A stretch of 64,000 nt of DNA from Eubacteriales bacterium (GCA_045659905.1 JAZRCT010000003.1:26037-90036), one strand, 5' to 3'. Positions 36,789 through 61,419 are shown, counted from the stretch's first letter. Numbers and translations: made by a program. Notes: a model not told the origin generated them from the sequence alone.

Positions 36789-37020
36789 AAGGGAGACTTT
36801 GTAGCCAAAGTCTCCCCTTACCCCCCGAAAGCATTTTGGGGTGTATTTTTTTGCTGTAAGGCTTTCTCAACCCAAAGCGCAAGCTTTGGATATCACTCTT
36901 TGCGTAAGCAAAGAATATCACTCCTTGCATATGCGAGGAATATCACTGCCACGTAAGTGGCAATATCACCCGAGCGTAAGCGAGGATATACCCCTCCCCT
37001 AAAGCGGGAGGCTAAGCTTT
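36789..37020 (+). repeat. intergenic GNRA-hairpin array element, copy A
   Basis: Hairpins GGGAGACTTTG-tagc-CAAAGTCTCCC, CCCCGAAA-gca-TTTTGGGG, CCAAAGC-GCAA-GCTTTGG, CTTTGC-GTAA-GCAAAG, CCTTGC-atat-GCGAGG and GCCAC-GTAA-GTGGC, separated by the linker AATATCAC(T). A second copy lies at 57242-57417. Confidence 0.8.
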
Positions 37021-37060
37021 GGGACGATTTCTTTTATATATATTAAATATTTTAAATATA

Positions 37061-37083
37061 GGAAGCTTCGGCTTCCTTTTTTT
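37061..37083 (+). terminator. rho-independent terminator
   Basis: GGAAGC-TTCG-GCTTCC hairpin followed by seven T residues. Confidence 0.7.
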
Positions 37084-37303
37084 GTTGTCGCTTTTTATGC
37101 AACCTGCATAAGTTTTAAGTCACATTTCGGGTTACTTTTGGAAGGCAAGTGTACTTACTTTGGCAAAAATCTCGGCTATAATTGAGCTACCGAGGAAAAA
37201 GCGGCGGCGCAGCTGCGGCTTCTTCGGCAAATAATGCCGAGAGCTTTTCGGCCTTGCTCGGTGCACAGGGCATAGCTGAAATTCTGCGGCGAACAGGAGA
37301 TTT

Positions 37304-37633
37304 TTGAATTTGAACAAAAGGAAAAAGAGGTATGACGGTGAGCTGCCCCGAAAAATGTATTCCTATTTCGCAGGCTACGACGACCCTAAGGGGTTGCCAA
37401 GCTTCTCGAAATTTGCAAGACTTTCGGGGGTGACGCTTGAGGAGCTGTCGGACTTTCGCAAGCATAAGGAATTTGAACGAGCTTGGCGCGAATGCATTGA
37501 AATCAGGAGGGATTACCTTATAGACTTAGCAATTACCAAGCGTGCCGATGCATCAATGGCAAAATTTCTGCTCAGCGAATCCGAGGTGAGCGACGATGGC
37601 TCGCTTAATTTCTCACTTACGGTGATAGAATAG
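37304..37633 (+). CDS. putative terminase small subunit
   Basis: 109-aa ORF (TTG start) immediately upstream of TerL, overlapping it by 1 nt. Basic N-terminus and HTH-like middle. The call is mainly positional. Confidence 0.5.
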   Translation: MNLNKRKKRYDGELPRKMYSYFAGYDDPKGLPSFSKFARLSGVTLEELSDFRKHKEFERAWRECIEIRRDYLIDLAITKRADASMAKFLLSESEVSDDGSLNFSLTVIE

Positions 37634-38997
37634 TGCAGCTTTCATTATCGGTGACGAAAAAGCAAAGGAAATTTATAGAGGCTGATTGCCAGGAGGTGCT
37701 TTTTGGCGGTGCGGCAGGCGGCGGAAAATCCTACGGTCAGATGGTGGATGCTCTGCTTTTTGCCCTTAAGTATCCCAAATCGAAGCAGCTGGTATTAAGA
37801 CGCACATTTACCGAGCTTGACAAGTCGCTGATACGAACCTCGCTTGCGTTATTTCCTAAAAGCATTTACACCTTTAATTCCTCAACCCATACGGGAAAAT
37901 TCAAAAACGGCTCGGTCATAGATTTCGGCTACTGCGCCACCGAAAACGACGTGTATCAGTATCAGAGCGCCGAATACGACGTCATTCGCTTTGACGAGCT
38001 TACCCATTTTACCGAGGCGCAATACGTATATCTCATCTCAAGAGTAAGGGGAGCTAACAGCTTCCCTAAGCAAATCAAATCCTCTACCAACCCCGGCGGA
38101 ATAGGGCACGGTTGGGTGAAGGCTCGCTTCGTGGACCCATCGCCGCCCGACACGGCGTTTATCGGCAAGGACGGTATGAAAAGAATTTTTATTCCGTCTC
38201 TTATAGACGACAATATCTTTCTTATGCAAAGCGACCCCGAGTATAAATCCCGTCTTATGACGCTCCCCGACTCTCAAAGGCGGGCGCTCCTCTACGGCGA
38301 CTGGGATATTTTTGAGGGACAGTATTTTACGGAATTTGACCGAGAAAAGCATATTTGCCAGCCCTTTGAAATACCGCCCCATTGGCGCAGGTACAGAACG
38401 GTGGACTACGGTCTTGACCGTCTTGCCTGCCTTTGGATTGCGGTATCCGAGGAGCGTGTGGCATACGTATACAGAGAATACTGCGAATCGAATCTTCCCA
38501 TCAGTGAGGCGGCTGCGGCTATCACCGAGAGAACCGTCAAGGGCGAGGATATCTACGCCACTCTTGCTCCCCCCGACCTTTTTTCACGAAGTCAGGAGAC
38601 GGGAAAGACGAAAGCGTCGCTCTTTTCGGAGCGAGGGGTGACCTTTACTAAAACCTCAAACGACCGTGAGGCAGGCTGGCTTGCCATAAAGGAGCTTTTG
38701 CTTCCCCGCGGCGGCAGAGTCGGACTTCAGATTTTCTCGAACTGCACCGAGCTTATAAGGTGTCTTCCCTCGCTTTGCGTGGACAAAATCCGTCCTACCG
38801 ACTGTGCGACGGAGCCGCACGACATAACCCACGCACCCGATGCTTTAAGAGGCTTTGCGATATTCCATTCTCGACCGAACGAGCCAACATACTCACCCAA
38901 GCGCAGAAGCTGGAGCTTCGATATGTGGGAGGATTACGAGAACGCCTCCTGTGATGAGAAAAAATACCTATTAGACAAATACGGAGAACCACAGTGA
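37633..38997 (+). CDS. phage terminase large subunit
   Basis: Walker A FGGAAGGGKSYG, Walker B-like YDVIRFDELTHF, then STNPGGIGHGWVK and a C-terminal nuclease-sized region. Confidence 0.85.
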   Translation: MQLSLSVTKKQRKFIEADCQEVLFGGAAGGGKSYGQMVDALLFALKYPKSKQLVLRRTFTELDKSLIRTSLALFPKSIYTFNSSTHTGKFKNGSVIDFGYCATENDVYQYQSAEYDVIRFDELTHFTEAQYVYLISRVRGANSFPKQIKSSTNPGGIGHGWVKARFVDPSPPDTAFIGKDGMKRIFIPSLIDDNIFLMQSDPEYKSRLMTLPDSQRRALLYGDWDIFEGQYFTEFDREKHICQPFEIPPHWRRYRTVDYGLDRLACLWIAVSEERVAYVYREYCESNLPISEAAAAITERTVKGEDIYATLAPPDLFSRSQETGKTKASLFSERGVTFTKTSNDREAGWLAIKELLLPRGGRVGLQIFSNCTELIRCLPSLCVDKIRPTDCATEPHDITHAPDALRGFAIFHSRPNEPTYSPKRRSWSFDMWEDYENASCDEKKYLLDKYGEPQ

Positions 38998-40724
38998 AAA
39001 TCGAATTAAAAAGCAAAAAGGAGCGGCTTGACTTTTTCAAATCGCTCTATGAAAACGCTAAATCCGCCTACGAGGACTGTCGTGAGGGCTTCCGTAGAAA
39101 TATGCGCCAATATAAAGGAAGCACCGAAATCGACGGAAGCTCCGAGCGCGCCCTCACCGTGCGGAATATCACCTATGAAATAGTCGAAAGCCAGGTAAAT
39201 TCGCAAATTCCCGCCCCCAAGGCAGACCCGCCCTCGTACAGCGAGAGCAAGGCAAGGCTTGCCGAAACCATTGAGCGTCTTTGCCGTGCCACCAGAGATA
39301 GGCTTCCGTTCGGGAAGCTGAACGACCTTGACGAAAGGTACACCTATATCTTCGGCGGTAGCGTATGGTACGCAGAATGGAACAACGAAAGCAAAATCGG
39401 AAACGAAATCGGCACGGTCGAGGTCCACTGTCTTCCGCCCGAGGATTTTATTCCCGAGCCTTGCGTCTTTGAGGTCGAGGATATGGAATACTGCTTCTTA
39501 AGATTCACGACCACAAGAGGCGCGCTCATAAGAAAATACGGAATAAGCCTCGAGGAGGCTTCGCTTGCCGAGTGCGAAAGCGAGCTTGGTGAGGACGGAC
39601 TCGCCGATACGGTCAGCGTGACGGTATGCTTCTACAAGGACGAGTACGGTCATGTATCGCAGTTCGTCTTCTCGGGACTTACTACACTCTCGGATATCGA
39701 AGGCTATTATAAAAGGAAGATTAAGGTTTGCAAGAAATGCTCGCAGAGAGAGGACCTTTGCAGCTGTGAAAAGCCAACCTTTGTTGTCAAAAACGAGGAT
39801 ACTGAGCTTGTTAGCGACCCCAAGGGCGTTTATCCGGATGCAAGCGTAAATTATTATCTTCCACGTCGCTTCCCGATAGTAATAAGGAAGAATACCTCAA
39901 CACACGCCTCGCTTTTCGGTCAGAGCGACTGCGACTATATAAGACCTGAGCAGCAGGCTATCAATAAGGTAGAAAGCCGAATTTTGCAAAAGCTTCTGCG
40001 CTCGGGAGTAACGCCCGTAGTCCCTGAGGATTCAAGCGTTGCCGTAAACAACTCCATCTTCGGTCAGGTGATAAAAATGAAGCCCGGCGAGAGTATGGCT
40101 CAGTACGGAAAGGTTGACACCACGCCCGATATTTCGGCAGACATTGCCGAGGCGGAAAGGCTGTACGAGCACGCAAAGCGAGTAATCGGAATTTCCGACG
40201 CTTACCTTGGAATATCCCAGAACAGAAACGAATCGGGCTACGCAAGACAGCTCCAGATTTCGCAGGCGTCAGGCCGTCTTGAATCAAAGCGGCAGATGAA
40301 AAATACCGCCTACGCCGAGCTTTACAGAATTATCTTCGAGCATTATCTCGCCTTTGCAGACGAGCCTCGTATGCTTGCCTACAAGGACGGCTTCGGCAGA
40401 ATTCATAACGAGCGCTTCAACAGGTACGATTTTCTAGACTACGATGCCGAGGCAGGCGAGTATTTTTATGACGACGCCTACCTTTTCTCGGTTGACGAAA
40501 ACGGCGGCGCTGAATACCAGCGAGAGGCGCTGTGGGAAAGAAACCTTGAAAACCTGAAATCGGGAACGCTTGGCGACCCTACGCACCCCTCTACTCTGCT
40601 TCGCTACTGGCAGACGCAGGAGCGTGCCCACTACCCCTTTGCAAGGGAGAACGTGGAATACTTTACCGAGCTTATAAGAAAGGAGGGCGATAACCCCTAT
40701 GGCAGCGAGACTGAAAAGCTTTAA
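38994..40724 (+). CDS. putative portal protein
   Basis: 576-aa ORF directly after TerL (4-nt overlap), so portal-typical in size and position. It contains a CxxC...CxC insert (CKKCSQREDLCSC). No motif-level confirmation. Confidence 0.55.
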   Translation: MKIELKSKKERLDFFKSLYENAKSAYEDCREGFRRNMRQYKGSTEIDGSSERALTVRNITYEIVESQVNSQIPAPKADPPSYSESKARLAETIERLCRATRDRLPFGKLNDLDERYTYIFGGSVWYAEWNNESKIGNEIGTVEVHCLPPEDFIPEPCVFEVEDMEYCFLRFTTTRGALIRKYGISLEEASLAECESELGEDGLADTVSVTVCFYKDEYGHVSQFVFSGLTTLSDIEGYYKRKIKVCKKCSQREDLCSCEKPTFVVKNEDTELVSDPKGVYPDASVNYYLPRRFPIVIRKNTSTHASLFGQSDCDYIRPEQQAINKVESRILQKLLRSGVTPVVPEDSSVAVNNSIFGQVIKMKPGESMAQYGKVDTTPDISADIAEAERLYEHAKRVIGISDAYLGISQNRNESGYARQLQISQASGRLESKRQMKNTAYAELYRIIFEHYLAFADEPRMLAYKDGFGRIHNERFNRYDFLDYDAEAGEYFYDDAYLFSVDENGGAEYQREALWERNLENLKSGTLGDPTHPSTLLRYWQTQERAHYPFARENVEYFTELIRKEGDNPYGSETEKL

Positions 40725-41364
40725 GGAATATATAGAAAAAGAAAAGCAGGCTTACGGCTCCGAATATAACGACGCACTCGCCAAAATATCCGTAAGCAAG
40801 CTTAAGGACGAGGTCACCGATACCGCCTTTAAGGAGAAGCTCTCCCGTGAGGGCTTATCCCGCTCGGGGTACGCAGAATATCTGAGAGGCGAAAGTGCGG
40901 CAGAGACAAAGGACGGAATAACTCTTGCCAAAAGAGAGCTTTTAGAGGCGGAAGCAAACGCCTACTCGGGATACGCCGAGTACCTTAACAATTACGAGAC
41001 CGTCCAGAGCGCCTTAAACAAAAGATTCATAGACTCACTTATCACCGACGGCGTATTCGATTCGGAGGAGGCAGAAAGAAAGGCTATCCTTATCGGTATC
41101 CCTAAGGAGAGAGCGGGAGATATCGCCGAGCTCGGAGTGCTTATTTCAAGAAAGCGCACCATAAGCTCTGCTGTAAAATACGCCAAGGAGAAAAATTATT
41201 CCTACCGAGGAGCTAAATACTACGCACTTTCTCTGGGACTTTCACAGCTTGACGCAAAAAGAGTAGCTGAAGAGGTATCCCGCATAACCGAGGAGGAGGC
41301 AGAGTGGTACGAATCGCTCGACAAGGACGCTTATTTTGACGAGATAAAGGGACAGCAGAATTAA
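40699..41364 (+). CDS. hypothetical protein (head-module position)
   Basis: 221-aa helical, charged ORF that overlaps the end of the portal gene. Confidence 0.5.
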   Translation: MAARLKSFKEYIEKEKQAYGSEYNDALAKISVSKLKDEVTDTAFKEKLSREGLSRSGYAEYLRGESAAETKDGITLAKRELLEAEANAYSGYAEYLNNYETVQSALNKRFIDSLITDGVFDSEEAERKAILIGIPKERAGDIAELGVLISRKRTISSAVKYAKEKNYSYRGAKYYALSLGLSQLDAKRVAEEVSRITEEEAEWYESLDKDAYFDEIKGQQN

Positions 41365-41390
41365 ATCTAACTTAAGAAAGGATAAACTAT

Positions 41391-41534
41391 ATGAAGGATA
41401 AGAAATATTCACCCTACGCCACCAATAAGGGCGGAAGAATCGAAAGTCCGAGAGTGATTTCCGACTCCGAGCCTAAGGCTAGCGTAACCAGAGGTGACGA
41501 CCTCAGAATCAGCAAAGCAAAGAAGTCTAAGTAA
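41391..41534 (+). CDS. small basic hypothetical protein (47 aa)
   Basis: ATG 41391 preceded by AAAGGA. Sequence MKDKKYSPYATNKGGRIESPRVISDSEPKASVTRGDDLRISKAKKSK. Not in the supplied ORF track because it is under 60 aa. Confidence 0.35.
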   Translation: MKDKKYSPYATNKGGRIESPRVISDSEPKASVTRGDDLRISKAKKSK

Positions 41535-41594
41535 TAATTAAAGACTTGATTTGAAAATAATTATTTACAAAATTCTTGAGAATGGAGATAAAGT

Positions 41595-42113
41595 ATGAAC
41601 GAAGCACTTAAGGAATCAGACCTCGAAATTGAAGCTTCAGTAGAGGATACGGCGGTATCCCGCACGGAGGATACGGCTGTGCAATCGGCAGAGAATGTGC
41701 CAGCGCCCCTCACAGAGGACAGCGAAGGCGGTGCCGAGCCTTCAGCCGAGACTGATAGCGACAGCGAGACCTCCGACGACACCGACTATGCGGCGCTTGC
41801 GGCAGAGGATATAGCTAAAATCAGGGAGCTTTTCCCCGAATGCCGCTCACTAAGGTCTGTAACCGAGCTTGAAAATCCCTTAAGGTATGCAACACTGCGT
41901 GACCTCGGGCTTAGCGTTAAGGAGGCGTTCCTCGCAACGCAAAAAAGGAGCGCAAGATACGACAACCGCGCTCACTTAAAAAGCTCCGTGCCGAGGGGCG
42001 CTGTGAGTGACGGAGCTTCTATGAGTGCCGAGGCACTAAGGGAAGCAAGAGAGCTTTTCTCGGGACTTTCGGACACTGAAATTCAAAAGCTCTACAAAAG
42101 CGTTATAAAATAA
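41595..42113 (+). CDS. putative scaffolding protein
   Basis: 172-aa ORF upstream of the coat candidate, with a very acidic N-terminal half and a helical C-terminus. GGAGA RBS. The call is positional and compositional. Confidence 0.4.
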   Translation: MNEALKESDLEIEASVEDTAVSRTEDTAVQSAENVPAPLTEDSEGGAEPSAETDSDSETSDDTDYAALAAEDIAKIRELFPECRSLRSVTELENPLRYATLRDLGLSVKEAFLATQKRSARYDNRAHLKSSVPRGAVSDGASMSAEALREARELFSGLSDTEIQKLYKSVIK

Positions 42114-42152
42114 CGCAAATTTTTTCACCTGTAAAATAAGAAAGGAAAAGAA

Positions 42153-42536
42153 ATGTTTAAATTACTTAAAATCAACGATTCACCCAGCAACACCCCCGAA
42201 ATCGTAAAGCTTAAAAAGGCTTCCACGGTTGCCTTTACGGTAGGTGAAGCATTAATTTTCGAAAAGGACAATACGACTCGCTGCGGCCCTAGCATGCGTC
42301 CTACTCATATTTCCGCCGCAGCCAGCGACGTCGGCGAGACCACCGTTCTTGCCTACAAGGTTACCAGCGATATGGTGTTTGAGACCAAGCTTATGACAGA
42401 CGGATTCGTATACCCCGGTGAGAAGCTTATAATTTCAGGAGGTGTCGGCGTCGCACAGCCCGACGAGGACGACATTGAAACCGTAGCCTCCGTAATCGTA
42501 TCCAGAGACGGAACCGCAATCGTATTTTTTGAATGA
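42153..42536 (+). CDS. hypothetical protein (possible head decoration or accessory protein)
   Basis: 127-aa ORF with an RBS, located between the scaffold-like and coat-like ORFs. Confidence 0.45.
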   Translation: MFKLLKINDSPSNTPEIVKLKKASTVAFTVGEALIFEKDNTTRCGPSMRPTHISAAASDVGETTVLAYKVTSDMVFETKLMTDGFVYPGEKLIISGGVGVAQPDEDDIETVASVIVSRDGTAIVFFE

Positions 42537-42553
42537 AAGGAAAATAGTTTAAA

Positions 42554-43603
42554 ATGATTGTTTACGCAAAATCAACCAATTTGAATAATTCTGCTATCGG
42601 AAAGCTTGAAACACCAATCAAGATGGTTATCGAGCACGAAAGCAATATGCAAACAAAGCGCGGAGGCATCTGCGACTGGCTCTTCAACGTTGAGAGGAGC
42701 AATAAATTCGGCGAGACCATCATAGGTCAGAACGAATTTGACATATTCCAGTCGGTAAACGAGGGCGGCAGAGGTGAAAACGACTCTATCGTCGAAACCT
42801 ACCGTAAGTTTATCGAGCACATACAGTTTATGAAGGAGTTTACCATCACGGCTGAAATGATGGAGGACGCAAACTACGGCGTTGCTCAGGATGCAAAGCG
42901 CCGTGCAGAAAACTTCACCCGTGCATACTATAAGACTATGCACAAGATTTGCGAATACGCTCTTTCAAATGCATATGCCCCTCTCGGATACTTTGCGAGA
43001 GCGACGCTCGACCTAACCGCACCCGACGGTCTTCCGCTTTTCTCGTCATCGCACAAGTACGGCGCCGGTACGCAAAACGGCACTCAGTCAAACTACTATT
43101 ACGGAAACATATTCTCCTCGGGCGGCAGCTACAGCACCACTGCATTTGAAAATGCGCTCGCCGACCTTTCGGTAAAAATCAGAAATATGAAGGACGAAAA
43201 CGGTGAGCCTCTCGGCTACACCGCAGATACGATTATCCTTCCCGGCAACCGTCCTATGGCGGAATCAATCGCCAAGAAGGTATGCGGCTCTGAGGGTGCG
43301 CTCGGCAACGGCTACAACGATATCAACCTTCAGTACGGCAACTGGAATATCGTAATTATGCCCAACTGGCAGACAGAGGACGACAGAGTTATGATTATGT
43401 CAAGCGAGGCGAATAAGAATCTTTCGGGAAATATGTTCTTCAACAGAGTTCCCCTTACCGTAACCAACTGGGTTGACCATCACACGGGCAACTACATCTG
43501 GGGCGGCAGATGCCGTTTCGGCGTTGGCTTCGGAAATTACAAGCACATTCTCCTTGCGGTACAGGCAGGAGATGAGGAGCTCAGCGGCGCTACTGCGCTT
43601 TAA
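42554..43603 (+). CDS. putative major capsid protein
   Basis: 349-aa ORF in the canonical position after the scaffold. No transmembrane or enzymatic motifs. The call is positional. Confidence 0.5.
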   Translation: MIVYAKSTNLNNSAIGKLETPIKMVIEHESNMQTKRGGICDWLFNVERSNKFGETIIGQNEFDIFQSVNEGGRGENDSIVETYRKFIEHIQFMKEFTITAEMMEDANYGVAQDAKRRAENFTRAYYKTMHKICEYALSNAYAPLGYFARATLDLTAPDGLPLFSSSHKYGAGTQNGTQSNYYYGNIFSSGGSYSTTAFENALADLSVKIRNMKDENGEPLGYTADTIILPGNRPMAESIAKKVCGSEGALGNGYNDINLQYGNWNIVIMPNWQTEDDRVMIMSSEANKNLSGNMFFNRVPLTVTNWVDHHTGNYIWGGRCRFGVGFGNYKHILLAVQAGDEELSGATAL

Positions 43604-43709
43604 GATAATCTCGGCCTTGAGCTGAATATTCTTTTTTGGAGCGCCGTGCCACATAAAGTCGGTGCGGCGCTTCTTTGAAAATTAACTTCTTAATAATGAA
43701 GGAGCATTT

Positions 43710-44549
43710 ATGAACTTAAAAGAATTAACGAAAGAGGTCTTCGCACTCGGCTTTGACGAGGGGGCGGAGGTGACCGACGCCTTCTATTCCTGCGCAAACC
43801 GTGCGCTGAGGCTGATTTACACCGAATACCCCTCCGAGCGAATGATAAAGAGCTTTGTAACGAGGCTTATTCCTTCCTCGACCTACGGAGTGTTTCGGCA
43901 TATCGGAGGCGAAGAAGAAAAAATCAGCGTAGTCGGCAAAGCGTTAAGCTTCACCGTAAGCGGAGCAGGTGAGGCCGTCTTAAGTGACCGAAGCGGAGAG
44001 CATACTATCCCTTTTAATTCACCGTTTTCACCCGTGCGCCGGCTTATAGCGGGAAGCGGCGAAATAACCTTCAAGGGGGATTTTTGCTATACCGTATCGG
44101 ATTTTGCGGTGTTCTCCGAGCTGTCAGGCCCCAACGAGGAGGATATCCCCTCGCTGTCGCTTGAAAGGACGCTTTCGATAGAGAATGCCGCAGCGGATTT
44201 TCTCTCACTCTCTAGGCTTCCCGAGGACGGAAACGGAGCTATTATCAGCGAGGCTAAAATAAGCGGTGGAGAGCTGTTTCTTCCCTCGGATTTCGAGGGC
44301 GAAATCAGGATATATTACAACCGCCGCCCAAGAGAGATAGTTAAGGGCGACGAGAACGGGAAAATCGACGTTCCCGAGGAGGTTTCGCATCTCGTGGCAC
44401 TCCTTACCTCTTCATATCTCTGGCTTGAAGACGAGCCCGAGCGTGCGGCGTACTATCTCACTCTCTACCGTGACGCTATGTCTAAGGCAAAGGAGCTTAG
44501 AGGGCGCACGGTCGGCACTCCGTTTACTGACGTTCTGAGGTGGGCGTGA
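43710..44549 (+). CDS. hypothetical protein (possible head-tail adaptor)
   Basis: 279-aa ORF with a GAAGGAG RBS. Its stop overlaps the next start (TGATG). Confidence 0.45.
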   Translation: MNLKELTKEVFALGFDEGAEVTDAFYSCANRALRLIYTEYPSERMIKSFVTRLIPSSTYGVFRHIGGEEEKISVVGKALSFTVSGAGEAVLSDRSGEHTIPFNSPFSPVRRLIAGSGEITFKGDFCYTVSDFAVFSELSGPNEEDIPSLSLERTLSIENAAADFLSLSRLPEDGNGAIISEAKISGGELFLPSDFEGEIRIYYNRRPREIVKGDENGKIDVPEEVSHLVALLTSSYLWLEDEPERAAYYLTLYRDAMSKAKELRGRTVGTPFTDVLRWA

Positions 44550-47263
44550 TGGCGGGAATTAAAAAAGGTGGGCTTTCCCACTCTGCGAGCAGCGAATACA
44601 GCGTAATTTATTCCTCTATGAGAGGAATAGACCTTTCGGGCGATGCAAGCTCGGTCGACCGCTTTCGCTTCGCTTACGCCGAGAATATGTATAAGGATTA
44701 CGACGGCGAGGGTGGCGATGCGGTAGAGAGCATTCCCGGTTTTAGGAAATTAGCCTCGCTCGGTGAAAAAATCAAAAAAATATTTATTTATAAGCCCGAT
44801 TCAGACAGCGAATATATAGTGATTCAGGCAGGGGCGGAGCTTTATATATCCGAAAGAGAGGCGCTTTTGCGAGGAGATGCCCCCGCCTTGGTTATGAGCG
44901 ACCTCGACGGCGATATTACCGCCGTAAGCTTTGGAGGTGAAATGCTCTTTTTCGGCGGAATGAGGCTTGCGGTGCTCGGCAAGGATGGCGCTTTTAGCGA
45001 AATCGTCGACGAAAGCAGCAGAATTTATATTCCCTACACCTATATCAACGGAAAGGAAGCCGAGGGACGCAATATGCTGACACGCCTCTCTTACGAAAGC
45101 TATACGATAGGCTCTGCCTACAAGCACACCTACGGCACGGAATCGCTCACCTACCAGATAACCGATATAGAGAATAAAACCTGCCGTGTCACGGGAATTA
45201 CCGACGCTAAGGAGCGCAGAATATATATCCCCAACAGGATAAAGCTCGCCGACGAATACTATACGGTAACCGAAATCGCTCCGCACGCCTTTGCGGGAAA
45301 CACTGCGCTCACGGCGGTGATTATAACCGAGGGCGTAAAAACTCTCGGCAAGTTTGCCTTTGCGGACTGTACCTCGCTTAACACGGTAGTACTCTCGGAT
45401 TCGGTAGAACTTATCGACAACGCCTGCTTTGCTAGATGCACGGGGCTAATGACGCTGCATATAGGACTTGGGCTTACCAAGGTTGGCTCTTCTCCGCTCT
45501 CGCAATGCCTTTCGCTAAGCGAAATCAGCTACGCCTCGGACGAAAGTGATTTTAACAAAATAGAAAACGTATCCTATATATCCGGCTATCAAATGGTATA
45601 CGGCAAAAAGCTTCTGTCGGGGTATATTTCAATTCCGATTTTCGGTCCCGTCACCGAAATTATCAGCGTGACGGCAGGCGGTGAGGAGCTTGACTTCAGC
45701 GTGACTTATAGAGAAAACGGGCTTTCAAGGTCGGTAAAAATTTACGCCGCTGACTTAAGCACTCTCGACGGAAAGGAATTTCTGGTTAAGGCAAAGCTAT
45801 CTAACAGCCGCCTTGATTATACCGAATACAGCGGCTTTATGAACAGCTCCTATTCGGTATTCTTCGACACCTTCAGGCTGATAGGTCTTTCAACGGTCGC
45901 CGCCGTTTACGACGGCAGAATTTTCCTCGGCGGCAACGTAAGACACCCCTCGCTATTGTTCTTCAGCTCTCGTGACAGAAAGGGAAACATAAATCCCTTT
46001 TATTTCAGCGAATACGATTATCTTGACGTAACGAGGGGTAGAGTAACCAACCTTTTACCCACGCAAAGCTCGCTTGCAGTATACACCGACGACGGCGGTG
46101 AATGCTCCATTTCCTACCTTTCGGCAAGGGATACGGGCATAGACCTCGTGCCGAGGATATATCCTACCGAATATATACACTCAGGGCTTTCCCTTGCGCA
46201 CTCTGCGATAAGCTTTCTCGACGAACAGCTTTTCCTTTCAAGTCAAGGGCTTATCCGACTTGGAAAGCTTGGGACTAATCTTGAGAGAAACGTGTCAATA
46301 ATTTCGAATAAAGTAAATAAAGTTTTACTTTCTTTGGATTTAAGTGATGCTGATATGACGGTTTGGCTAGGCTATCTTGTGATTGGAGCTTGCGGAAAAA
46401 TATTTCTTGCTGACCCAAGACAGAGCTATTATGAGAACGGAATTCAGGAGTACGAATGGTATCTTCTTTCGGATATCGGCACATACGAAAACGACCTGCC
46501 AAAATACCGCTATGCCTCGGTTGGAGACGGATATTCCAATGCTAAAGCGGAGCTTTGCGACCTTGAAGTGCCAAGCGACAAGACCGTATATTCCGCAGTA
46601 CGCTCGGACGGAGCTACCGTCTACTACACCGAGGAGGGCGGCGAGCATATATGCGTATATAAGACTGAGGAGCGCTACGGCGGCGAATTCTCTACCCTCA
46701 CTGCGCTTTCCTCTGACGGCACGCTGCTCTTTTTCGGTACGGGGAGCGGAGATATCTGCGTTTTCAACAACGACAAGAGAGGGCTTCCTCCCGACTCATA
46801 CTATCTTGAGGACGGCTTTGACGCCGAGGAATACAGACGCCGCTTTGGAAAAAGCATAGCCAAGGAATTTTACTCCTTTGCAGGGCACAGACCGAAATAT
46901 ATCCTGAAAACCAAACGGGACGACTGCGGAATCCCGCATCTGACGAAATCCACCGTCAAGCACTCTATGACCTTAAAGCTTCGCTCCCTTTCGGGCGGAA
47001 AGCTGAGCTGTGAAATAAAGACCGACCGCGGTACGGTAAAGGAAGCTCTATTCACTACCTCAGGCACGCTTTGCTTTGACGGGCTTGACTTTTCACAGCT
47101 TTCCTTTGACTGCGAGGACAGCTTCACAAGACCGCTTAACGCAAAGGAAAAAAGCTGGGTGGAAAAGCAGATAACCGTAACCTCCGCTGAATTCAACTCC
47201 CCGATATCGGTCTACAATATTGCCTACCGATTCCGAGTAAAGGGCAGAATAAAGAAATCATAA
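44549..47263 (+). CDS. large virion/tail-associated protein with an internal BspA-type leucine-rich repeat segment
   Basis: 904-aa ORF. LRR_5-like repeats (IAPHAFAGNTALTAVIITEGVKTLGKFAFADCTSLNTVVLSDSVELIDNACFARCTGL) at about nt 45220-45560. Recurring beta-propeller-like LFFGG / IFLGG / LLFFGTGSG strands elsewhere. Confidence 0.6.
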   Translation: MAGIKKGGLSHSASSEYSVIYSSMRGIDLSGDASSVDRFRFAYAENMYKDYDGEGGDAVESIPGFRKLASLGEKIKKIFIYKPDSDSEYIVIQAGAELYISEREALLRGDAPALVMSDLDGDITAVSFGGEMLFFGGMRLAVLGKDGAFSEIVDESSRIYIPYTYINGKEAEGRNMLTRLSYESYTIGSAYKHTYGTESLTYQITDIENKTCRVTGITDAKERRIYIPNRIKLADEYYTVTEIAPHAFAGNTALTAVIITEGVKTLGKFAFADCTSLNTVVLSDSVELIDNACFARCTGLMTLHIGLGLTKVGSSPLSQCLSLSEISYASDESDFNKIENVSYISGYQMVYGKKLLSGYISIPIFGPVTEIISVTAGGEELDFSVTYRENGLSRSVKIYAADLSTLDGKEFLVKAKLSNSRLDYTEYSGFMNSSYSVFFDTFRLIGLSTVAAVYDGRIFLGGNVRHPSLLFFSSRDRKGNINPFYFSEYDYLDVTRGRVTNLLPTQSSLAVYTDDGGECSISYLSARDTGIDLVPRIYPTEYIHSGLSLAHSAISFLDEQLFLSSQGLIRLGKLGTNLERNVSIISNKVNKVLLSLDLSDADMTVWLGYLVIGACGKIFLADPRQSYYENGIQEYEWYLLSDIGTYENDLPKYRYASVGDGYSNAKAELCDLEVPSDKTVYSAVRSDGATVYYTEEGGEHICVYKTEERYGGEFSTLTALSSDGTLLFFGTGSGDICVFNNDKRGLPPDSYYLEDGFDAEEYRRRFGKSIAKEFYSFAGHRPKYILKTKRDDCGIPHLTKSTVKHSMTLKLRSLSGGKLSCEIKTDRGTVKEALFTTSGTLCFDGLDFSQLSFDCEDSFTRPLNAKEKSWVEKQITVTSAEFNSPISVYNIAYRFRVKGRIKKS

Positions 47264-47277
47264 AGAAAGGAATAAAA

Positions 47278-47643
47278 ATGAAAACAGAAAAAATCACCGA
47301 AAATGAAATCTCCGAGCTTAAGGTTTCCTCCTTGCCAACACGTCCTACCTCACCCGTCACCTACGGCGGACGAGGCTTTACCGCAAGCGATATGAAGGCG
47401 GCGTTTGACCGGCTTCCGCTCTTTATAATCGAGCGTCTTAATTCGCTTATAGAGGATATCAAGGCACTCCCCGAGGAATCCGTTGCCGCCGACATTAGGA
47501 CGGGGATTCGTGAGGAGCATAGCCTGTCGGAGCTTTTTTCGGACATAGTAAGCGGTATTTTCTGCGAGTATCTCTCGGTAGGAGACGAAAGCTTATCCGA
47601 GTGGAAGTCAAGAGTTGACGCTTATATCTTAAGTCAGGAATAA
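47278..47643 (+). CDS. hypothetical protein
   Basis: 121-aa ORF with an RBS, within the cluster. Confidence 0.5.
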   Translation: MKTEKITENEISELKVSSLPTRPTSPVTYGGRGFTASDMKAAFDRLPLFIIERLNSLIEDIKALPEESVAADIRTGIREEHSLSELFSDIVSGIFCEYLSVGDESLSEWKSRVDAYILSQE

Positions 47644-47697
47644 AACGCTCGCTACTTACAAAATAATAACCATAATACCAGAAGAAAGGAACAATAT

Positions 47698-48120
47698 ATG
47701 ACAAGGATTGTTTACAAAAAGCGATTTGCTTCACTTCCTACGGAGGAGGGCGCAATAATCCTTAGGGAGGTTTCAGGCGCAGGTCTTGAGGAGGTTATAA
47801 TCGAGCTTTGCGACCTACCGTCGGGACATATACGCATCGGCGACGAGCGTTTTGAGGTAAAGAGCGGTGTAGCAAGAGTGAACCTCTGTGCGCTTACCGA
47901 CGGACTTTACACTCCTATTTACACAGTAGGCGCACGCTCGCTCGTATGCTCGCCCTTTATCAAGCGTCAGGGAGTAATATTAAGGCCGATCCCCGACGGT
48001 AGGGATATATCCCGCCTTGAGCTTCTTATCTCAAACCTTGAGGAGCGCATCAGCTCGCTTGAGGGGGAGCTTTCGGCTTTAAAAGTAAAAAGTGAATCTC
48101 AAAATTCTATTACTCTTTAA
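47698..48120 (+). CDS. hypothetical protein with C-terminal coiled coil
   Basis: 140-aa ORF with an RBS. C-terminal heptad-like segment LELLISNLEERISSLEGELSALK. Confidence 0.5.
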   Translation: MTRIVYKKRFASLPTEEGAIILREVSGAGLEEVIIELCDLPSGHIRIGDERFEVKSGVARVNLCALTDGLYTPIYTVGARSLVCSPFIKRQGVILRPIPDGRDISRLELLISNLEERISSLEGELSALKVKSESQNSITL

Positions 48121-48136
48121 CTAAAGGAAGGAAAAA

Positions 48137-48790
48137 ATGAAAAAGCTAATATTTATACCTATTATTATCGCTCTGCTCCTTGCGCTCACAGTCACCTCGG
48201 CGTTTGCGCTTGAGAGTGACACAAATACGATAGCGTCAGGTGCAGAGGGAAGCCAGAGCACAGAGTCCTCCGAAAATACAGAGGAGGCAGCCGAGGGTGA
48301 GGAAGCAAATATCTTCTCTACCGCATTTTCTGCTATATGCAACCACTCGGGCGAAATTCTTTCAGCAATTACCGCACTGCTTTCGGGTATCGTAATTTTC
48401 GTATACAAGCGTGGCATACTGCCTATTCTCTCGGGCGGGATTTCGGTAGTAAAGGGCGAGGTCGCAGAAATTGAAAAGCACTCAAAGGCGCAAAAGGAAA
48501 CCAGCCTTGCCCTATCATCGACGGTAAGCGACGGCCTTGCCTCGGCAAACGAGCGCCTTACCTCGCTTCAGGAAAATCTGACCTTGCTATCCGAGAGGCT
48601 TATTCTCGCCGAACATACATATAAGGGCACGGACGAGCTGTTCTCAGTGCTCTCCTCTCAGCTTGAAATGCTCTACGAGATATTTATGTCCTCCTCGCTT
48701 CCCGCTTATGAAAAGGAGCGTGTTGCCGAAAGGATTGCGGCTATGAAAGACTGCTTCACCAAAAAGACAGAGGAGCGAGAAAATGTATGA
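48137..48790 (+). CDS. membrane-associated protein (signal/anchor, acidic region, second TM, coiled coil)
   Basis: N-terminal MKKLIFIPIIIALLLALTVTSAFA. A second hydrophobic segment ILSAITALLSGIVIFVY. GGAAGGA RBS. Confidence 0.6.
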   Translation: MKKLIFIPIIIALLLALTVTSAFALESDTNTIASGAEGSQSTESSENTEEAAEGEEANIFSTAFSAICNHSGEILSAITALLSGIVIFVYKRGILPILSGGISVVKGEVAEIEKHSKAQKETSLALSSTVSDGLASANERLTSLQENLTLLSERLILAEHTYKGTDELFSVLSSQLEMLYEIFMSSSLPAYEKERVAERIAAMKDCFTKKTEERENV

Positions 48791-49148
48791 TAAAAGAAGA
48801 CTTATTTTCGGAATTATCGGGCTTCTGATATCAACCGTTCCCACCGCTCTTTGCGTGCTTTCCTATTTTCCGCTCTGGCAGGAGCGTGGAAGCGATTGCG
48901 TGCTGAGCGGCGTGGCGCTTATCCTTTTGCTGCTCTCGCTTATTCCGCTTATAAGAATAATCAAAGGCAAGCTTAAGACGCCTGCCGCCTATATGGTATG
49001 GCTTATAATCTTTGTTTTGTTTTTCTCGCTCTCAAAAATTGCCGACGAAATGACGGTAATTTCCTTCGTAGGCTTTACTACCAACCTTTTAGGCTCGGTA
49101 TTCTTTAAGCTATCGAAGAAAAAGGGAGGAGCAAATGAAGAGGATTAA
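48783..49148 (+). CDS. small polytopic membrane protein (about 4 TM)
   Basis: Four hydrophobic segments. Overlaps the upstream ORF by 8 nt, with a GAGGAG RBS. Confidence 0.6.
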   Translation: MYDKRRLIFGIIGLLISTVPTALCVLSYFPLWQERGSDCVLSGVALILLLLSLIPLIRIIKGKLKTPAAYMVWLIIFVLFFSLSKIADEMTVISFVGFTTNLLGSVFFKLSKKKGGANEED

Positions 49149-49983
49149 CGAGCTTGAAAGCAAAATCCTCGATTTCGGTGACACGCTGAAGCCGTCGCTT
49201 GAGAGCGTTATCAACAATATCGGCAAAATCGTAGCGCTGATATGCATAGCCGTGACGCTTCTCGTCACCTTTACTGAGGTTAGCTTTGCAAGCCTTGATA
49301 TAGGAAATACTCTGCCGACTCTTATTTTGCTCTTAGTGTCCTCTTATATAATTTACTTTTCCCTTGAGGACGCAGGCGAAAGGCTTGGGCAGAAAAGCGG
49401 CGAGTACATAGCGGCAAAGGAGCGCTTTGATATACAGAGGCAGAAAATCCGAGGCGAGCAAATAGGCGAGCTTCGGGACTTTCTTGAAGACTACACAAGG
49501 CGTGAGCTTGATTACCGAAGACGAAGCCTTTTATTCTCGCACGGGCTTACAGAGGAAGAGCTGAACGCATATATGAACGGCGAGAGTTTCTCCAGAAAAA
49601 AGCAACGCATACTTTACAAAATAGCCAAGAAAAAGCCAATCTCACTCACGCCTGAAAAGCTACTTGGCGGACTGCGCCCCTCGGAATCTCAAGGGCTTGA
49701 AGCGCCTTTTCGCAAAAAGCTTTTCAGCCTTATTACGAAGCTTTTGCCCTCTACTCTTTGTATGTGCGTAACGGTGTCGGTAATCCTACGTGTAAAATCG
49801 GATATGAGCGCCTCCGACGTGCTTACCGCACTGCTTAAGCTGAGCGCACTTCCGATAGTCGGCTTCAAGGGCTATTCGGCAGGCTACGCCTATGCAAAGT
49901 GCAGTCTCAGCGTATGGCTTAATACCAAAGCCGATTTGCTCGAAAGCTTCCTTGCCGAGCGCTCGGTGACAAGCAGCGAATAA
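49135..49983 (+). CDS. polytopic membrane protein
   Basis: Two N-terminal and two C-terminal hydrophobic segments around a charged central region. GGGAGGAG RBS. Overlaps the upstream ORF. Confidence 0.6.
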   Translation: MKRINELESKILDFGDTLKPSLESVINNIGKIVALICIAVTLLVTFTEVSFASLDIGNTLPTLILLLVSSYIIYFSLEDAGERLGQKSGEYIAAKERFDIQRQKIRGEQIGELRDFLEDYTRRELDYRRRSLLFSHGLTEEELNAYMNGESFSRKKQRILYKIAKKKPISLTPEKLLGGLRPSESQGLEAPFRKKLFSLITKLLPSTLCMCVTVSVILRVKSDMSASDVLTALLKLSALPIVGFKGYSAGYAYAKCSLSVWLNTKADLLESFLAERSVTSSE

Positions 49984-53375: not shown

Positions 53376-53846
53376 TCAGGCTTTATTCGGATAGTCGAAA
53401 TGCGTCTTGCATCTGTTAAGCTCGTTAAGGTATCTTTTGCACTCACGCTTAGCAAAGTCGAGGTCAAGCTCACGGTAGTTGCCGCACTCCACTCTCGTTG
53501 CGCCGAAAATCTCGGAATCGTGCTCTATTACCTTTTTTAAAGCGTCCTTAACTGCAAGAAGCACACGCTCATGGTCGCTCGTTCTTACGAGAAGATAAAA
53601 TCCCGTGCGGCATCCCATAGGTCCGAAATATAAAACCTCACTGCCGATATCACCCGAGCGGATATAGGTAGCGAGCATATGCTCGACCGAGTGCATAGTG
53701 ATATTATCCATATAATCACCCGCATTAGGCACACGGGTACGAAGGTCGTAGGTGGTAACGTCGCCGTCTATGCGTGAAATATAGATGTTCGGAGTGATAT
53801 AATCGTGATTTACCGTAAATGAGGCAATTTTCTCAGGAGTATTCAT
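53376..53846 (-). CDS. luxS: S-ribosylhomocysteine lyase
   Basis: Metal motif HSVEHMLAT and MGCRTGFY. ATG 53846 lies 1 nt after the glyQS stop. Confidence 0.9.
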   Translation of the reverse strand: MNTPEKIASFTVNHDYITPNIYISRIDGDVTTYDLRTRVPNAGDYMDNITMHSVEHMLATYIRSGDIGSEVLYFGPMGCRTGFYLLVRTSDHERVLLAVKDALKKVIEHDSEIFGATRVECGNYRELDLDFAKRECKRYLNELNRCKTHFDYPNKA

Positions 53847-53847
53847 A

Positions 53848-55239
53848 TCAGAACTCAAGCTTAGCCTCGATATAAGCCGCAACCTCTGCTATGGGAAGTC
53901 TTACCTGCTCCATAGTATCTCTGTCACGGACGGTAACGCAGCCGTCGTTCTCGCTCTCGAAATCGTAGGTAACGCAGAAGGGTGTGCCTATCTCGTCCTC
54001 ACGGCGGTATCTCTTACCGATAGAGCCCGTTTCGTCAAAGTCAACCGCAAATCTCTTAGCAAGAAGGTCGTATACCTCGAGCGCACGCTCAGAGAGCTTC
54101 TTTGAAAGAGGAAGCACTGCGCACTTATAGGGTGCTAATGCAGGGTGAAGTCTTAAAACTACTCTCGAATCGCCCTCGGAGAGCTGCTCCTCGTCGTATG
54201 CGTCAACTAAGAATGCAAGCGCAACTCTGTCAGCGCCGAGCGAGGGCTCGACAACGTAAGGAGTATATCTTTCGTTGGTCTCGGGGTCAAAGTAGGTCAT
54301 ATCCTTGCCAGAGAACTTTTCGTGCTGACCGAGGTCGTAATCGGTTCTGTCGGCGATACCCCAAAGCTCACCCCAGCCAAACGGGAACAGGAATTCAAAG
54401 TCGGTAGTAGCCTTGGAATAGAAGCAAAGCTCCTCGGGGTCGTGGTCACGAAGCCTCAAATTCTCGTCACGCATACCAAGGTCGAGAAGCCACTTATGGC
54501 AAAAGTCCTTCCAATACTTGAACCATTCAAGGTCGGTGCCGGGCTTGCAGAAAAATTCAAGCTCCATCTGCTCAAACTCACGGGTACGGAAGGTGAAGTT
54601 ACCGGGGGTAATCTCGTTACGGAAGGACTTACCTATCTGGCATACGCCAAAGGGAAGCTTTCTTCTCGTCGCTCTTTGGGTTGATGCAAAGTTGACGAAT
54701 ATACCCTGCGCCGTCTCGGGGCGAAGATATACGGTGCTCGAGGAATCCTCGGTAACGCCTATAAAGGTCTTGAACATAAGATTGAATTTCTTAATATCGG
54801 TGAATTCCTTACCGCCGCAGATGGGGCAGACTATTCCCTTGTCCGCAATAAACTTAGCCATCTCCTCGAAGCTCCAGGCAGCGGGGTTATCGTCTGTGCC
54901 GTTCTGAAATGCGTAGTCCTCGATAAGCTTGTCCGCTCTGTGGCGTGCCTTACAGCCCTTGCAGTCCATAAGGGGGTCGGAAAATCCGCCTACGTGTCCA
55001 GAAGCTACCCAAGCCTGAGGGTTCATTATAATAGCCGAGTCAAGTCCCACGTTGTAGCGTGATTCCTGAACGAACTTTTTCCACCAGGCACGCTTTACGT
55101 TGTTCTTAAACTCAACGCCGAGAGGGCCGTAATCCCAGCTGTTAGCAAGTCCACCGTATATTTCCGAGCCGGGGAATATAAAGCCTCTTGTCTTGCAAAG
55201 AGCTACGATTTTGTCCATTGTCTTTTTGCTGTTTTCCAT
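53848..55239 (-). CDS. glyQS: glycine--tRNA ligase (homodimeric alpha2 type)
   Basis: 463-aa class II aaRS with [24 protein letters not shown] and a C-terminal anticodon-binding domain. Confidence 0.9.
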
Positions 55240-57241: not shown

Positions 57242-57417
57242 GGGGGTGCTTTGCAGCCAAAGCGTCCCAGGATATTTTAAAGGGAGACTTTGCAGGCAAA
57301 GTCCCCCTTACACCCCGAAAGCGTTTTGGGAGTATTTTTCGACCCAAAGCGTGAGCTTTGGATATCACTGCCACGCAAGTGGCAATATCACTCTTTGCGT
57401 GAGCAAAGAATATCACT
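57242..57417 (+). repeat. intergenic GNRA-hairpin array element, copy B
   Basis: Same orientation and hairpin set as copy A: GGGAGACTTTG-cagg-CAAAGTCCCCC, CCCCGAAA-gcg-TTTTGGG, CCAAAGC-GTGA-GCTTTGG, GCCAC-GCAA-GTGGC and CTTTGC-GTGA-GCAAAG, with AATATCACT linkers. An extra upstream hairpin GCTTTG-cagc-CAAAGC is present. Confidence 0.8.
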
Positions 57418-59475: not shown

Positions 59476-59877
59476 ATGAAATTCAGAGCAATTACGGAAA
59501 ATCACTTATACAAGAAGGCGTACGCTAAGGGCAAAAGAGCCGTGACGTCGGCTCTGGCAGTTTATATGCTGCCCGATTACGCTGCAAAGCGACTTATGAA
59601 ATCCGATACGAGAAGCAGATTTACCAACCGTTACGGAATTACGGTTTCAACCAAAATTGGCGGCGCAGTAACGAGAAGCAGATGCCGACGCATTATCAGG
59701 GCGGCACTTTATTCAATTGAGCAGAGAGGAAATTTAAAAATGGGCTTCCTCATCGTTATTTCAGCACGCCACAGCTCCGTCAGCAAAAAGAGCACGGAGA
59801 TTGAAAAGGAGCTTATCACCGCCTTTTCAAAGCTGGGACTTATCAAGGACGGTGTGCCATCGCACGGGGATATATAA
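59476..59877 (+). CDS. rnpA: ribonuclease P protein component
   Basis: Position after rpmH. Basic RNR-like motif (GGAVTRSRCRRIIR). 133 aa. Confidence 0.85.
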   Translation: MKFRAITENHLYKKAYAKGKRAVTSALAVYMLPDYAAKRLMKSDTRSRFTNRYGITVSTKIGGAVTRSRCRRIIRAALYSIEQRGNLKMGFLIVISARHSSVSKKSTEIEKELITAFSKLGLIKDGVPSHGDI

Positions 59878-60249
59878 ATGAAGCATTTAATGATAGGTAT
59901 AATTAAGCTATACCGCAAATTTATATCTCCCCTGAAGCCACCCTGCTGCAGATTTACTCCCTCCTGCTCGCAGTATGCGCTCGACGCATTTATGAAGCGT
60001 GGCTTTTTCGTAGGCTTTGGGCTTACGGTATACAGGATTCTGAGGTGCAACCCCTTCTCTAAGGGCGGTGAGGATCCGGTGCCGGAAAAGCCTGACCGCA
60101 AAAGAAAGAAGGCAAGGAAAGAGTTTAAGGACCTACCCTTAGCTCTTGAGGAAAAGCCGTCTGTCAGCGGCACCGAAGAAGGCACTAAAGACGAATCCGT
60201 CAGCAATTTTATCAGTACCGGCAAAGGTGACTCTTTGCCAAGCGACTGA
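59878..60249 (+). CDS. yidD: membrane protein insertion efficiency factor YidD with a charged C-terminal extension of about 45 aa
   Basis: Conserved [11 protein letters not shown]...RCNPF core. The start abuts the rnpA stop. Confidence 0.85.
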
Positions 60250-60298
60250 CAGGGTGATTGAATCTAACCAAGAAAATAACCTAAAGAGGATTTAAAAA

Positions 60299-61402: not shown

Positions 61403-61419
61403 AGGAAAGAGGCATTACG

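Follow-up and report, generated by a model that had tools for sequence, protein, structure and literature searches.

A cluster of 15 open reading frames (ORFs) at positions 37304-49983 of a 64,000-nucleotide (nt) stretch of DNA from a Eubacteriales bacterium (GCA_045659905.1 JAZRCT010000003.1:26037-90036; the whole 64-kb stretch is called the window below) appears to be a phage morphogenesis operon that has been domesticated and is inherited vertically in a clade of uncultured gut Clostridia, most likely one that makes particles resembling gene transfer agents (GTAs). We put the probability of this reading at roughly 0.65. Three of the six features by which GTAs are defined were found here: a cluster of head, tail and terminase genes derived from a phage; a lack of autonomy and mobility; and vertical inheritance under purifying selection. 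The other three, namely production under host regulators, the packaging of host DNA, essentially at random and in lengths below that of the element, and the delivery of this DNA to recipients, are predictions of this reading. The cluster is probably a new and independent member of the GTA kind.

Organization and composition of the cluster

As the initial annotation had it, the 15 ORFs are co-oriented, on the + strand, and tightly packed with overlapping starts and stops. Fourteen of them encode proteins of 109-907 amino acids (aa); the fifteenth is a basic 47-aa protein (41391-41534, + strand), and an ORF of the same size is called as a gene at the same position in the related locus L131 (numbers of this form denote the loci and contigs compared). 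The overlaps amount to 1 nt between the small and large terminase genes (TAGTG), 4 nt between the large terminase and portal genes (GTGA), 26 nt between portal and p221, 10 nt between adaptor and nozzle, 8 nt between p217 and p121b, and 14 nt between p121b and p282. Upstream, an ABC-F gene ends at 36768 and, downstream, a DinG-like helicase gene starts at 50202, with no further credible gene in the space between them and the cluster.

The cluster contains morphogenesis functions and little else. It had been noted that no integrase, repressor, replication, protease, tape-measure, tube, sheath or lysin gene could be recognized between the ABC-F and helicase genes, and that neither a tRNA nor direct-repeat att sites flank the cluster. 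Our results agree on both counts: searches of the cluster proteins with Pfam and family profiles detect none of these domains, a tRNA scan of the whole window is empty, and no exact repeat of 10 nt or more is common to both flanking intergenic regions. The window contains no second phage-like locus, lysin or regulator, and the modules of a complete prophage (integrase, immunity, replication and lysis) are absent from the window and from all related loci examined. GC content is flat across the cluster region, and cluster and host genes of the window are nearly indistinguishable in GC content (0.490 versus 0.493), GC content at third codon positions (GC3; 0.549 versus 0.554) and codon usage (r 0.95).

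Conserved position and purifying selection across gut Clostridia

A scan of one genome per species identifies 43 loci with a portal protein that is 53-66% identical to that of the window over near-full-length matches. Their hosts are all gut metagenome-assembled genomes (MAGs) labelled Clostridia, Eubacteriales or 'uncultured Ruminococcus', and they come from ruminants, horse and humans. L131, with a portal protein 75% identical, is a closer relative and has about 8 kb of extended flanking synteny in common with the window. About 40 of the 43 loci have the entire cluster in collinear order, and nearly all loci have the cluster genes at full length. In about 25 loci the ABC-F gene precedes the cluster on the same strand, and in about 18 the DinG gene follows it directly, the remainder being cut by the end of the locus. 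One sub-clade has different, internally conserved upstream neighbors, together with the same downstream gene and a promoter that is still present. The conserved chromosomal position, proposed earlier as a check on domestication, thus extends over about 40 species.

The ABC-F proteins that flank the cluster in these species are only 65-73% identical to the window ABC-F, and this divergence excludes the explanation that the loci belong to near-identical strains. In the two least saturated pairs, the ratio of non-synonymous to synonymous substitution rates (dN/dS) is 0.02-0.20 for all cluster genes, compared with 0.03-0.04 for ABC-F. Synonymous divergence (dS) in the pair L008-L014 is 0.06-0.29 for cluster genes and 0.35 for ABC-F; in the pair L008-L025 the core genes have values of 1.2-1.8 and the full set of genes 0.47-2.7, compared with 1.30 for ABC-F. 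Selection was the second check proposed in the initial annotation, and it too comes out in favor of domestication, with purifying selection on all genes and a divergence that matches the flanking host gene. Pairwise protein distances likewise follow those of ABC-F, with Pearson correlations of 0.85 for the large terminase and portal proteins, 0.86 for the adaptor and 0.72 for the nozzle. Composition follows the host as well: the GC3 of cluster genes tracks that of ABC-F across species over a range of 0.48-0.75 (r 0.87-0.95).

The missing lysogeny, replication and lysis modules might suggest a non-functional prophage remnant that has survived because it is recent or because it lies beside essential genes, and one contig in IMG/VR (L052) does have a split portal gene. 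Such a remnant is extremely improbable, however, given that 14 genes are full length in about 40 species with ABC-F proteins as divergent as stated, that dN/dS stays at 0.02-0.2, that the promoter and leader described below are conserved despite synonymous saturation between most pairs, and that composition is fully ameliorated. Synteny, intactness, selection, co-divergence and composition, taken together, exclude both that the cluster is a remnant in decay and that it is an island that moves horizontally. The cluster is inherited with the chromosome under selection and is integrated into the host, with one locus, L036, as the sole exception.

L036 (JAXEKG010000003.1) is the most divergent copy, with a portal protein 53% identical to that of the window. 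Its two halves are permuted, so that the genes from adaptor to p282 lie upstream of those from the small terminase to p221. No capsid gene is found within reach, and the flanks are ABC transporter-like ORFs (by tblastn), not ABC-F and DinG.

DNA packaging and head proteins

Profile and structure searches confirm phage folds for the terminase, portal, capsid, adaptor and nozzle proteins, some of which had first been proposed from size and order. The first gene (37304-37633, + strand, TTG start) encodes a 109-aa small terminase-like protein (TerS-like) that matches phrog_3064, 'terminase', with E 8e-8; its residues 30-97 align to positions 80-147 of the 175 in that profile, and the protein is conserved in 36 loci. 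The second gene (37633-38997, + strand) encodes the 454-aa large terminase (TerL; PF03237, and phrog_979 with E 1.5e-49). Its orthologues, matched in 41 loci, are 450-462 aa in most of these and 67-78% identical to the window TerL, with dN/dS of 0.04-0.08.

The 576-aa portal protein (38994-40724, + strand) is identified by phrog_156 (E 2e-32) and by weak matches to the SU10_portal and P22_portal models, both of which fall below the curated cut-offs (24.6 bits against 26.1 for P22_portal, and similarly for SU10_portal). The portal family comprises 2187 homologues in clusters at 90% identity, and it is a small family, with 594 representatives at E<=1e-3 among 1.84 billion sequences of the 50% library.

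Four ORFs lie between portal and capsid, one of them the 47-aa ORF already mentioned. The charged, helical p221 (221 aa; 40699-41364, + strand) has no family match, keeps its position, and is 23-38% identical in 25 loci; it is possibly a scaffold or an internal head protein. The acidic p172 (172 aa; 41595-42113, + strand) has 36 acidic versus 20 basic residues and is encoded just upstream of the capsid gene, and its charge and position point to a scaffold. The C-terminal 60% of p172 is 38-60% identical in 34 loci. Directly before the capsid gene lies p127 (127 aa; 42153-42536, + strand), a small head protein that has no family match; a protein of similar size occupies the matching position in the related phages L044, L046 and L133, and L045 has a weak tblastn match.

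The major capsid protein (349 aa; 42554-43603, + strand) is of the Mu-gpT, or Phage_capsid_4, type. Single-sequence matches are weak, consisting of phrog_371 and of annotated capsid genes found by tblastn, and the family profile finds only a marginal Mu-gpT match in the PDB (E 0.05). Since the PDB search is marginal, the assignment is settled by hhalign, in which the family profile aligns to the major head protein of Bacillus phage PK1 with a probability of 98.65% and E 5e-16 over 286 columns. A structure model made from the single sequence has a mean predicted local distance difference test score (pLDDT) of 36 and is not usable. The capsid protein has a length of 347-354 aa across loci and dN/dS of 0.02-0.09.

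Adaptor, nozzle and other tail genes

The 279-aa protein encoded after the capsid gene (43710-44549, + strand) is a head-to-tail adaptor of the SU10 type (PF24175, SU10_adaptor, E 1.2e-5); the same model matches 17 of 30 adaptor orthologues, with a best E of 7e-8. The next gene (44540-47263, + strand) encodes the tail nozzle, p907. The initial annotation gave it as a structural protein of 904 aa; its structural role is borne out, and its length is more likely 907 aa from a GTG start at 44540, since the resulting N-terminus MGVMA is kept in orthologues, which are 882-919 aa long across loci. An AlphaFold model built with 16 homologues reaches a pLDDT of 85.9, and its top Foldseek matches are podovirus nozzles, namely those of cyanophage A4 (E 5e-19), T7 gp12, SU10 and P22 gp10 (8eap_D, E 4e-11). 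A BspA-type leucine-rich repeat (LRR) domain is inserted in the nozzle at about residues 215-350 (LRR_5, E 8e-17).

Two small genes follow. p121a (121 aa; 47278-47643, + strand) is a tail accessory protein with a conserved N-terminal domain and a coiled coil; its N-terminal 60 residues are conserved in 25 loci. In L033, p121a is fused to a tail-fibre N-terminal motif, while other loci have a fibre module inserted directly after p121a, and p121a is the probable fibre attachment point. Profile searches of the PDB with the adaptor and with p121a return no match. p140 (140 aa; 47698-48120, + strand) has a C-terminal coiled coil and no significant family match, and is conserved in 17 loci at 26-39% identity; it may be a tail plug or a needle-like protein.

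An extra module of 2-2.5 kb lies between the p121a and p140 orthologues in L001, L002, L005, L028, L033, L039 and L041. It has three ORFs: one for a 156-aa protein that bears a tail-fibre N-terminal motif (phrog_6049), one for a protein without any match that is about 385-460 aa long, and a short one of about 80 aa. The window cluster does not have this module.

The initial annotation had left open whether the cluster is GTA-like or a satellite, and the tail genes bear on this choice. A helper-dependent capsid-forming satellite, similar to the capsid-forming phage-inducible chromosomal islands, would package itself and hijack a helper phage for induction, tails or lysis. With 12.7 kb the cluster falls in the size range of such islands, and it is a compact, head-centered module that has its own terminase and no lysis genes. 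It nevertheless encodes its own adaptor and nozzle, whereas such satellites take their tails from the helper; integrase, replication and primase genes, att repeats and a regulatory switch are all missing from the locus; and, unlike a mobile island, it occupies a fixed site with dS and GC3 that track the host over about 40 species. A satellite is accordingly very unlikely, and of the two earlier suggestions it is the domesticated GTA-like element that is supported.

Membrane proteins at the end of the operon

The last three genes encode membrane proteins, all described here from hydropathy scans. p217 (217 aa; 48137-48790, + strand) has an N-terminal signal or transmembrane segment, an acidic stretch, a second transmembrane segment and a coiled coil. 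It is found in 29 loci with a dN/dS of 0.11 (one pair), and in the rearranged L036 it stays with the tail genes. p121b (121 aa; 48783-49148, + strand) has 3-4 transmembrane segments and a charged C-terminus, a holin-like topology that makes it a candidate holin; it has 25 orthologues with dN/dS of 0.08-0.15. p282 (282 aa; 49135-49983, + strand), the last gene of the cluster, has transmembrane regions at about residues 22-78 and 196-218, and 23 orthologues with dN/dS of 0.09-0.17. Although the gene order had been taken to place ejection proteins at the end of the operon, these three proteins could not be identified as such, and no homology to tailspike, needle or ejection proteins was detected in the cluster.

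A conserved promoter and a structured leader

Upstream of the small terminase gene lies a putative operon promoter (37152-37182, + strand) that consists of TACTTAC at 37152-37158, an 18-nt spacer and TATAAT at 37177-37182. The corresponding motif, A(C)TATACTTAC-N17/18-TA(T/G/A)AAT, precedes TerS at a distance of 90-240 nt in 33 of 41 related loci. It has a single match in the 64-kb window, where 0.01 would be expected, and in the related loci it is nearly exclusive to the position before TerS. Since synonymous sites are saturated between most of the species compared, this conservation is not mere inherited similarity. The -35 element is non-canonical and not sigma-A-like, which suggests that a dedicated sigma factor or activator reads this promoter. 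Dedicated regulators have precedents in Xpf of PBSX and GafA of RcGTA. A promoter of the TcdR/UviA type was considered and not adopted, as the -35 element of that family is TTTACA and its -10 element GTTATA; CTTAC(A/T) is only loosely alike, and the -10 element here is TATAAT-like. A scan of IMG/VR with the motif for other operons gave at least 120 matches, dominated by chance in AT-rich viral contigs.

The promoter is followed by a structured 5' leader (37183-37303, + strand) that ends with an AGGAG ribosome-binding site at 37294-37298. The window leader folds with -47.9 kcal/mol (z -2.5). Across loci, leaders are 59-207 nt long and begin with a UUGCCGA-like sequence, and this 5' arm pairs with a segment just before the ribosome-binding site. 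We tested the pairing by comparing cognate with non-cognate duplexes and by constrained folds: cognate arms pair 2.9 kcal/mol better than non-cognate ones, and do so in 88% of loci (Wilcoxon p 7e-7, with loci that are not phylogenetically independent). A hexamer TC[CA][TG]GA, read as UCAUGA or UCCGGA, is present in 17 of 34 leaders at a fixed distance from the promoter, and in 15 of the 16 hairpins folded it lies in the loop, on stems whose sequence varies between loci through covariation. The loop hexamer of this inner hairpin is self-complementary, its equivalent in the window being CAGCUG, and covariation is seen in the closing stem of the leader as well as in the inner hairpin. An Rfam search with the leader found no family match, and RNAalifold on a MAFFT alignment gave no structure, the leaders of 59-207 nt having been misaligned. 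The TTGCCGA start of the leader was also considered as a Spo0A box and rejected as such: its variants come with compensating changes, which favors RNA pairing.

Phage relatives and viral contigs

For the head and tail genes, the closest true phages are contigs and prophages from the human gut, of the L044, L046, L049 and L133 type (MT836833, MT837280 and relatives). Their portal proteins (28-31% identity) and capsid proteins (26-27% identity) are homologous to those of the window, the genes run as in the window, from portal through small proteins and capsid to the adaptor-sized and nozzle-sized genes, and L044 has a match to p907. Unlike the window cluster, these phages also have a DNA methylase and early genes, many of them small, upstream of this set, and they go on to encode a collagen-like fibre, an M23/GH25 endolysin and a holin. 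The L044 family consists of ordinary prophages, and its gene content shows what the window cluster has lost or had relocated.

IMG/VR contains fragments of the domesticated cluster itself (L051-L057 and L063), along with phage-like contigs that have in common with it TerL alone (55-68% identity) or TerL and portal (46%). One of the phage-like contigs, L062 (IMGVR_UViG_3300029705_000297, 41.8 kb), has a TerL 67-68% and a portal protein 46-47% identical to those of the window. Past about 15 kb of the locus, long ORFs are nearly lacking from this contig, and its late genes may use a reassigned stop codon. Prophage-prediction tools will label loci such as the window cluster viruses, and several copies are already in IMG/VR.

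Comparison with known systems

The order of the cluster genes (terminase, portal, scaffold, coat, adaptor and nozzle, then small and membrane proteins) and the lack of a prohead protease are those of P22, SU10 and T7, whose nozzle fold it also has; the adaptor and portal proteins match SU10 models. The earlier description of the cluster as P22-like therefore stands for gene order and nozzle fold. It does not hold for the coat protein, which is of the Mu-gpT type and not of the P22 coat family, nor for the portal and adaptor, which fit best with SU10-type models.

The initial annotation held that such an element would be novel for this kind of Bacillota genome. A precedent does exist in FpGTA, the podovirus-like GTA of Faecalibacterium prausnitzii (2026 paper, PMC12946183; 2024 preprint, bioRxiv 2024.11.15.623857), although the window cluster does not look like a close homologue of it. 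The FpGTA operon has 10 ORFs, including TerS, TerL, portal, a Prp-like protein, a capsid protein of the N4-gp56 type, a nozzle and a TolA-like protein; a second locus contains fibre, receptor-binding, holin and endolysin genes; and the particles measure 40 nm and contain 8.4-8.9 kb of random DNA (PMC12946183). GTA-like packaging to which no genes are assigned has been described in the same study for Gemmiger, CAG-115, Ruminococcus callidus, Onthomonas and Christensenellaceae (PMC12946183).

Both elements reside in gut commensal Clostridia as chromosomal operons of about 10-13 kb that start with TerS, TerL and portal, continue with capsid and nozzle, and contain no integrase, replication or lysis genes. 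Both have a podovirus-type tail, and PDB 8eap, to which the FpGTA nozzle was matched, is one of the matches of the window nozzle too. Near the end of the FpGTA operon, the coiled-coil 'TolA-like' protein takes a position comparable to that of p217 in the window. The differences lie in the head and in gene content. The FpGTA capsid is annotated as N4-gp56, whereas the window capsid is of the Mu-gpT type, and the NCBIfam N4-gp56 model matches neither the window capsid nor any of 32 members of its family. Where FpGTA has the Prp-like protein between portal and capsid, the window has its four unrelated ORFs, and no Prp or peptidase match is found among the window cluster proteins. The window cluster is also larger, with 15 ORFs against 10, and has three membrane proteins and a nozzle with an LRR insertion. 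Fibre genes form part of the second locus in FpGTA, whereas here, in those relatives that have them, they lie inside the operon; a second locus of the FpGTA type (fibre, receptor-binding, holin and endolysin) is not within the 64-kb window. Based on the different capsid family, the lack of Prp and the larger gene content, compared against the published description of FpGTA, we keep the cluster apart from the FpGTA family. A literature search found no other paper on this cluster.

The classical GTAs and viriforms (RcGTA and its relatives in Alphaproteobacteria, BaGTA, VSH-1, Dd1 and VTA) are likewise phage-derived clusters of structural and terminase genes that lack genes for autonomy. They also resemble the window cluster in clade-wide vertical inheritance, purifying selection and host-like composition, in regulatory elements that may be under host control, and in lysis and accessory genes that are expected elsewhere. 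They differ in that no sequence relation to the window cluster is seen; in that particles of the RcGTA type are siphovirus-like, whereas the window cluster is podovirus-like and belongs to a Gram-positive-type gut anaerobe; and in that their packaging of random short DNA and their transfer have been demonstrated, whereas those of the window cluster are predicted. The PBSX-type defective prophages of Bacillus are, like the cluster, chromosomal and non-replicating elements of Bacillota, and PBSX packages host DNA. A dedicated sigma-like factor drives the late operon of PBSX, which may parallel the non-canonical promoter of the window. In contrast to the window cluster, PBSX has a contractile tail and also encodes a repressor, lysis functions and regulators of its own.

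A model for particle formation and its alternatives

In the GTA-like model, the promoter ATACTTAC-N17/18-TATAAT and the structured leader would place the 15-gene operon under host control, with a specialized sigma factor or activator, encoded elsewhere, probably being needed. Proheads would be assembled from the portal, the scaffold-like proteins and the Mu-gpT-type capsid protein, and would be filled with DNA by TerS and TerL. Because the element is unable to excise or replicate, this DNA would have to be essentially chromosomal. The SU10-type adaptor and the T7/P22-type nozzle would then close the head and form a short tail, and recipient cells would be bound by the LRR domain of the nozzle and, in some species, by the added fibre module. 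The three conserved membrane proteins may serve in release from the producer or in the passage of DNA into the recipient. Lysis functions would lie outside the operon, located elsewhere as in FpGTA and RcGTA.

The main rival reading, to which the same evidence of domestication applies equally, is a particle with a function other than gene transfer, short-tailed and filled with DNA that it does not deliver productively. Such particles might serve in killing or competition, release extracellular DNA or act as decoys; a role of this kind has been proposed for PBSX of Bacillus subtilis. The LRR domain of the nozzle suggests selection on cell binding and is compatible with either use, and the authors of the FpGTA study leave the same question open for FpGTA (PMC12946183). 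We nevertheless consider a function of this kind unlikely, since the constraint on TerS and TerL is among the strongest in the cluster (dN/dS 0.04-0.2), which implies that DNA packaging itself is selected, and since the tail is of the podovirus type, with no contractile killing device, and no toxin domain was detected in the cluster.

Several observations weigh against the interpretation of the cluster as a vertically inherited, GTA-like operon. Neither the cluster nor the 64-kb window contains an endolysin or a clear holin. As regards particles, packaging, transfer and the length of the packaged DNA, the element is known here from sequence only. Residues 30-60 of the TerS-like protein resemble a helix-turn-helix segment, so that packaging may be sequence-specific. 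The distances between capsid proteins correlate poorly with those of ABC-F (Pearson 0.32, Spearman -0.18), possibly through recombination of the capsid gene between lineages; alternatively, the poor correlation could reflect the saturation of a highly constrained protein. The L036 copy may be a separate integration or a rearrangement. Finally, the hosts are all MAGs, for which errors in contig binning are conceivable, although the flanking genes share contigs with the cluster.

Chromosomal surroundings

The other genes examined in the window are housekeeping genes. They encode TrmK, RF-2, PcrA, HisRS, YggS, SepF, LspA and RluD, as well as an amino-acid ABC transporter, the ABC-F protein, the DinG-like helicase, a nucleosidase, LuxS, an aminoacyl-tRNA synthetase and a MiaB-like protein. 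Downstream of the cluster, luxS (53376-53882) follows after 3.4 kb and the origin-proximal set rnpA-yidD-yidC-jag-mnmE (59476-63860) after about 10 kb, and the latter places the cluster near the replication origin region. A 3347-aa ORF on the - strand (3930-13973) has no Pfam match at E<=1e-4 and is located in a stretch where GC content rises to 0.55.

Two intergenic arrays, at 36859-36995 and 57362-57410, consist of 4-5 tandem units of about 24-25 nt, each with a short hairpin and ATATCAC. The first array sits between terminator-like hairpins at 36823-36841 and 37060-37077 and gives a sub-threshold match to the Rfam Gut-1 RNA on the minus strand (33 bits against a gathering score of 50; E 1e-4). 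We considered these repeats as part of the element and rejected the idea in view of the second array, as they are apparently a dispersed intergenic repeat.

Implications for possible gene transfer among gut bacteria

GTAs are known from few lineages, and among gut commensals FpGTA alone has been tied to genes. Judging from long-read virome data, gut Clostridia commonly package host DNA in a GTA-like manner, with genes assigned only in Faecalibacterium. The cluster described here is a testable candidate for a second, apparently independent GTA family, present in dozens of species of ruminant, horse and human guts. The concept is not new since FpGTA; what is new is the family, its wide distribution, its markers and its regulatory unit. 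A fuller statement, which we advance only tentatively and hold to be somewhat short of probable, is that gut Clostridia of herbivores and humans have a clade-wide, independently domesticated GTA that supplies the missing genetic basis for some of the virome packaging outside Faecalibacterium, with a new regulatory unit and targeting by an LRR nozzle.

The marker genes TerL, portal, capsid and nozzle, together with the promoter motif, should be useful for finding producers and the rest of the regulon, including the lysis genes and the regulator, and the cluster markers may help to interpret 'bacterial contamination' in viromes. If the GTA-like interpretation is true, the element could move host DNA between gut bacteria.

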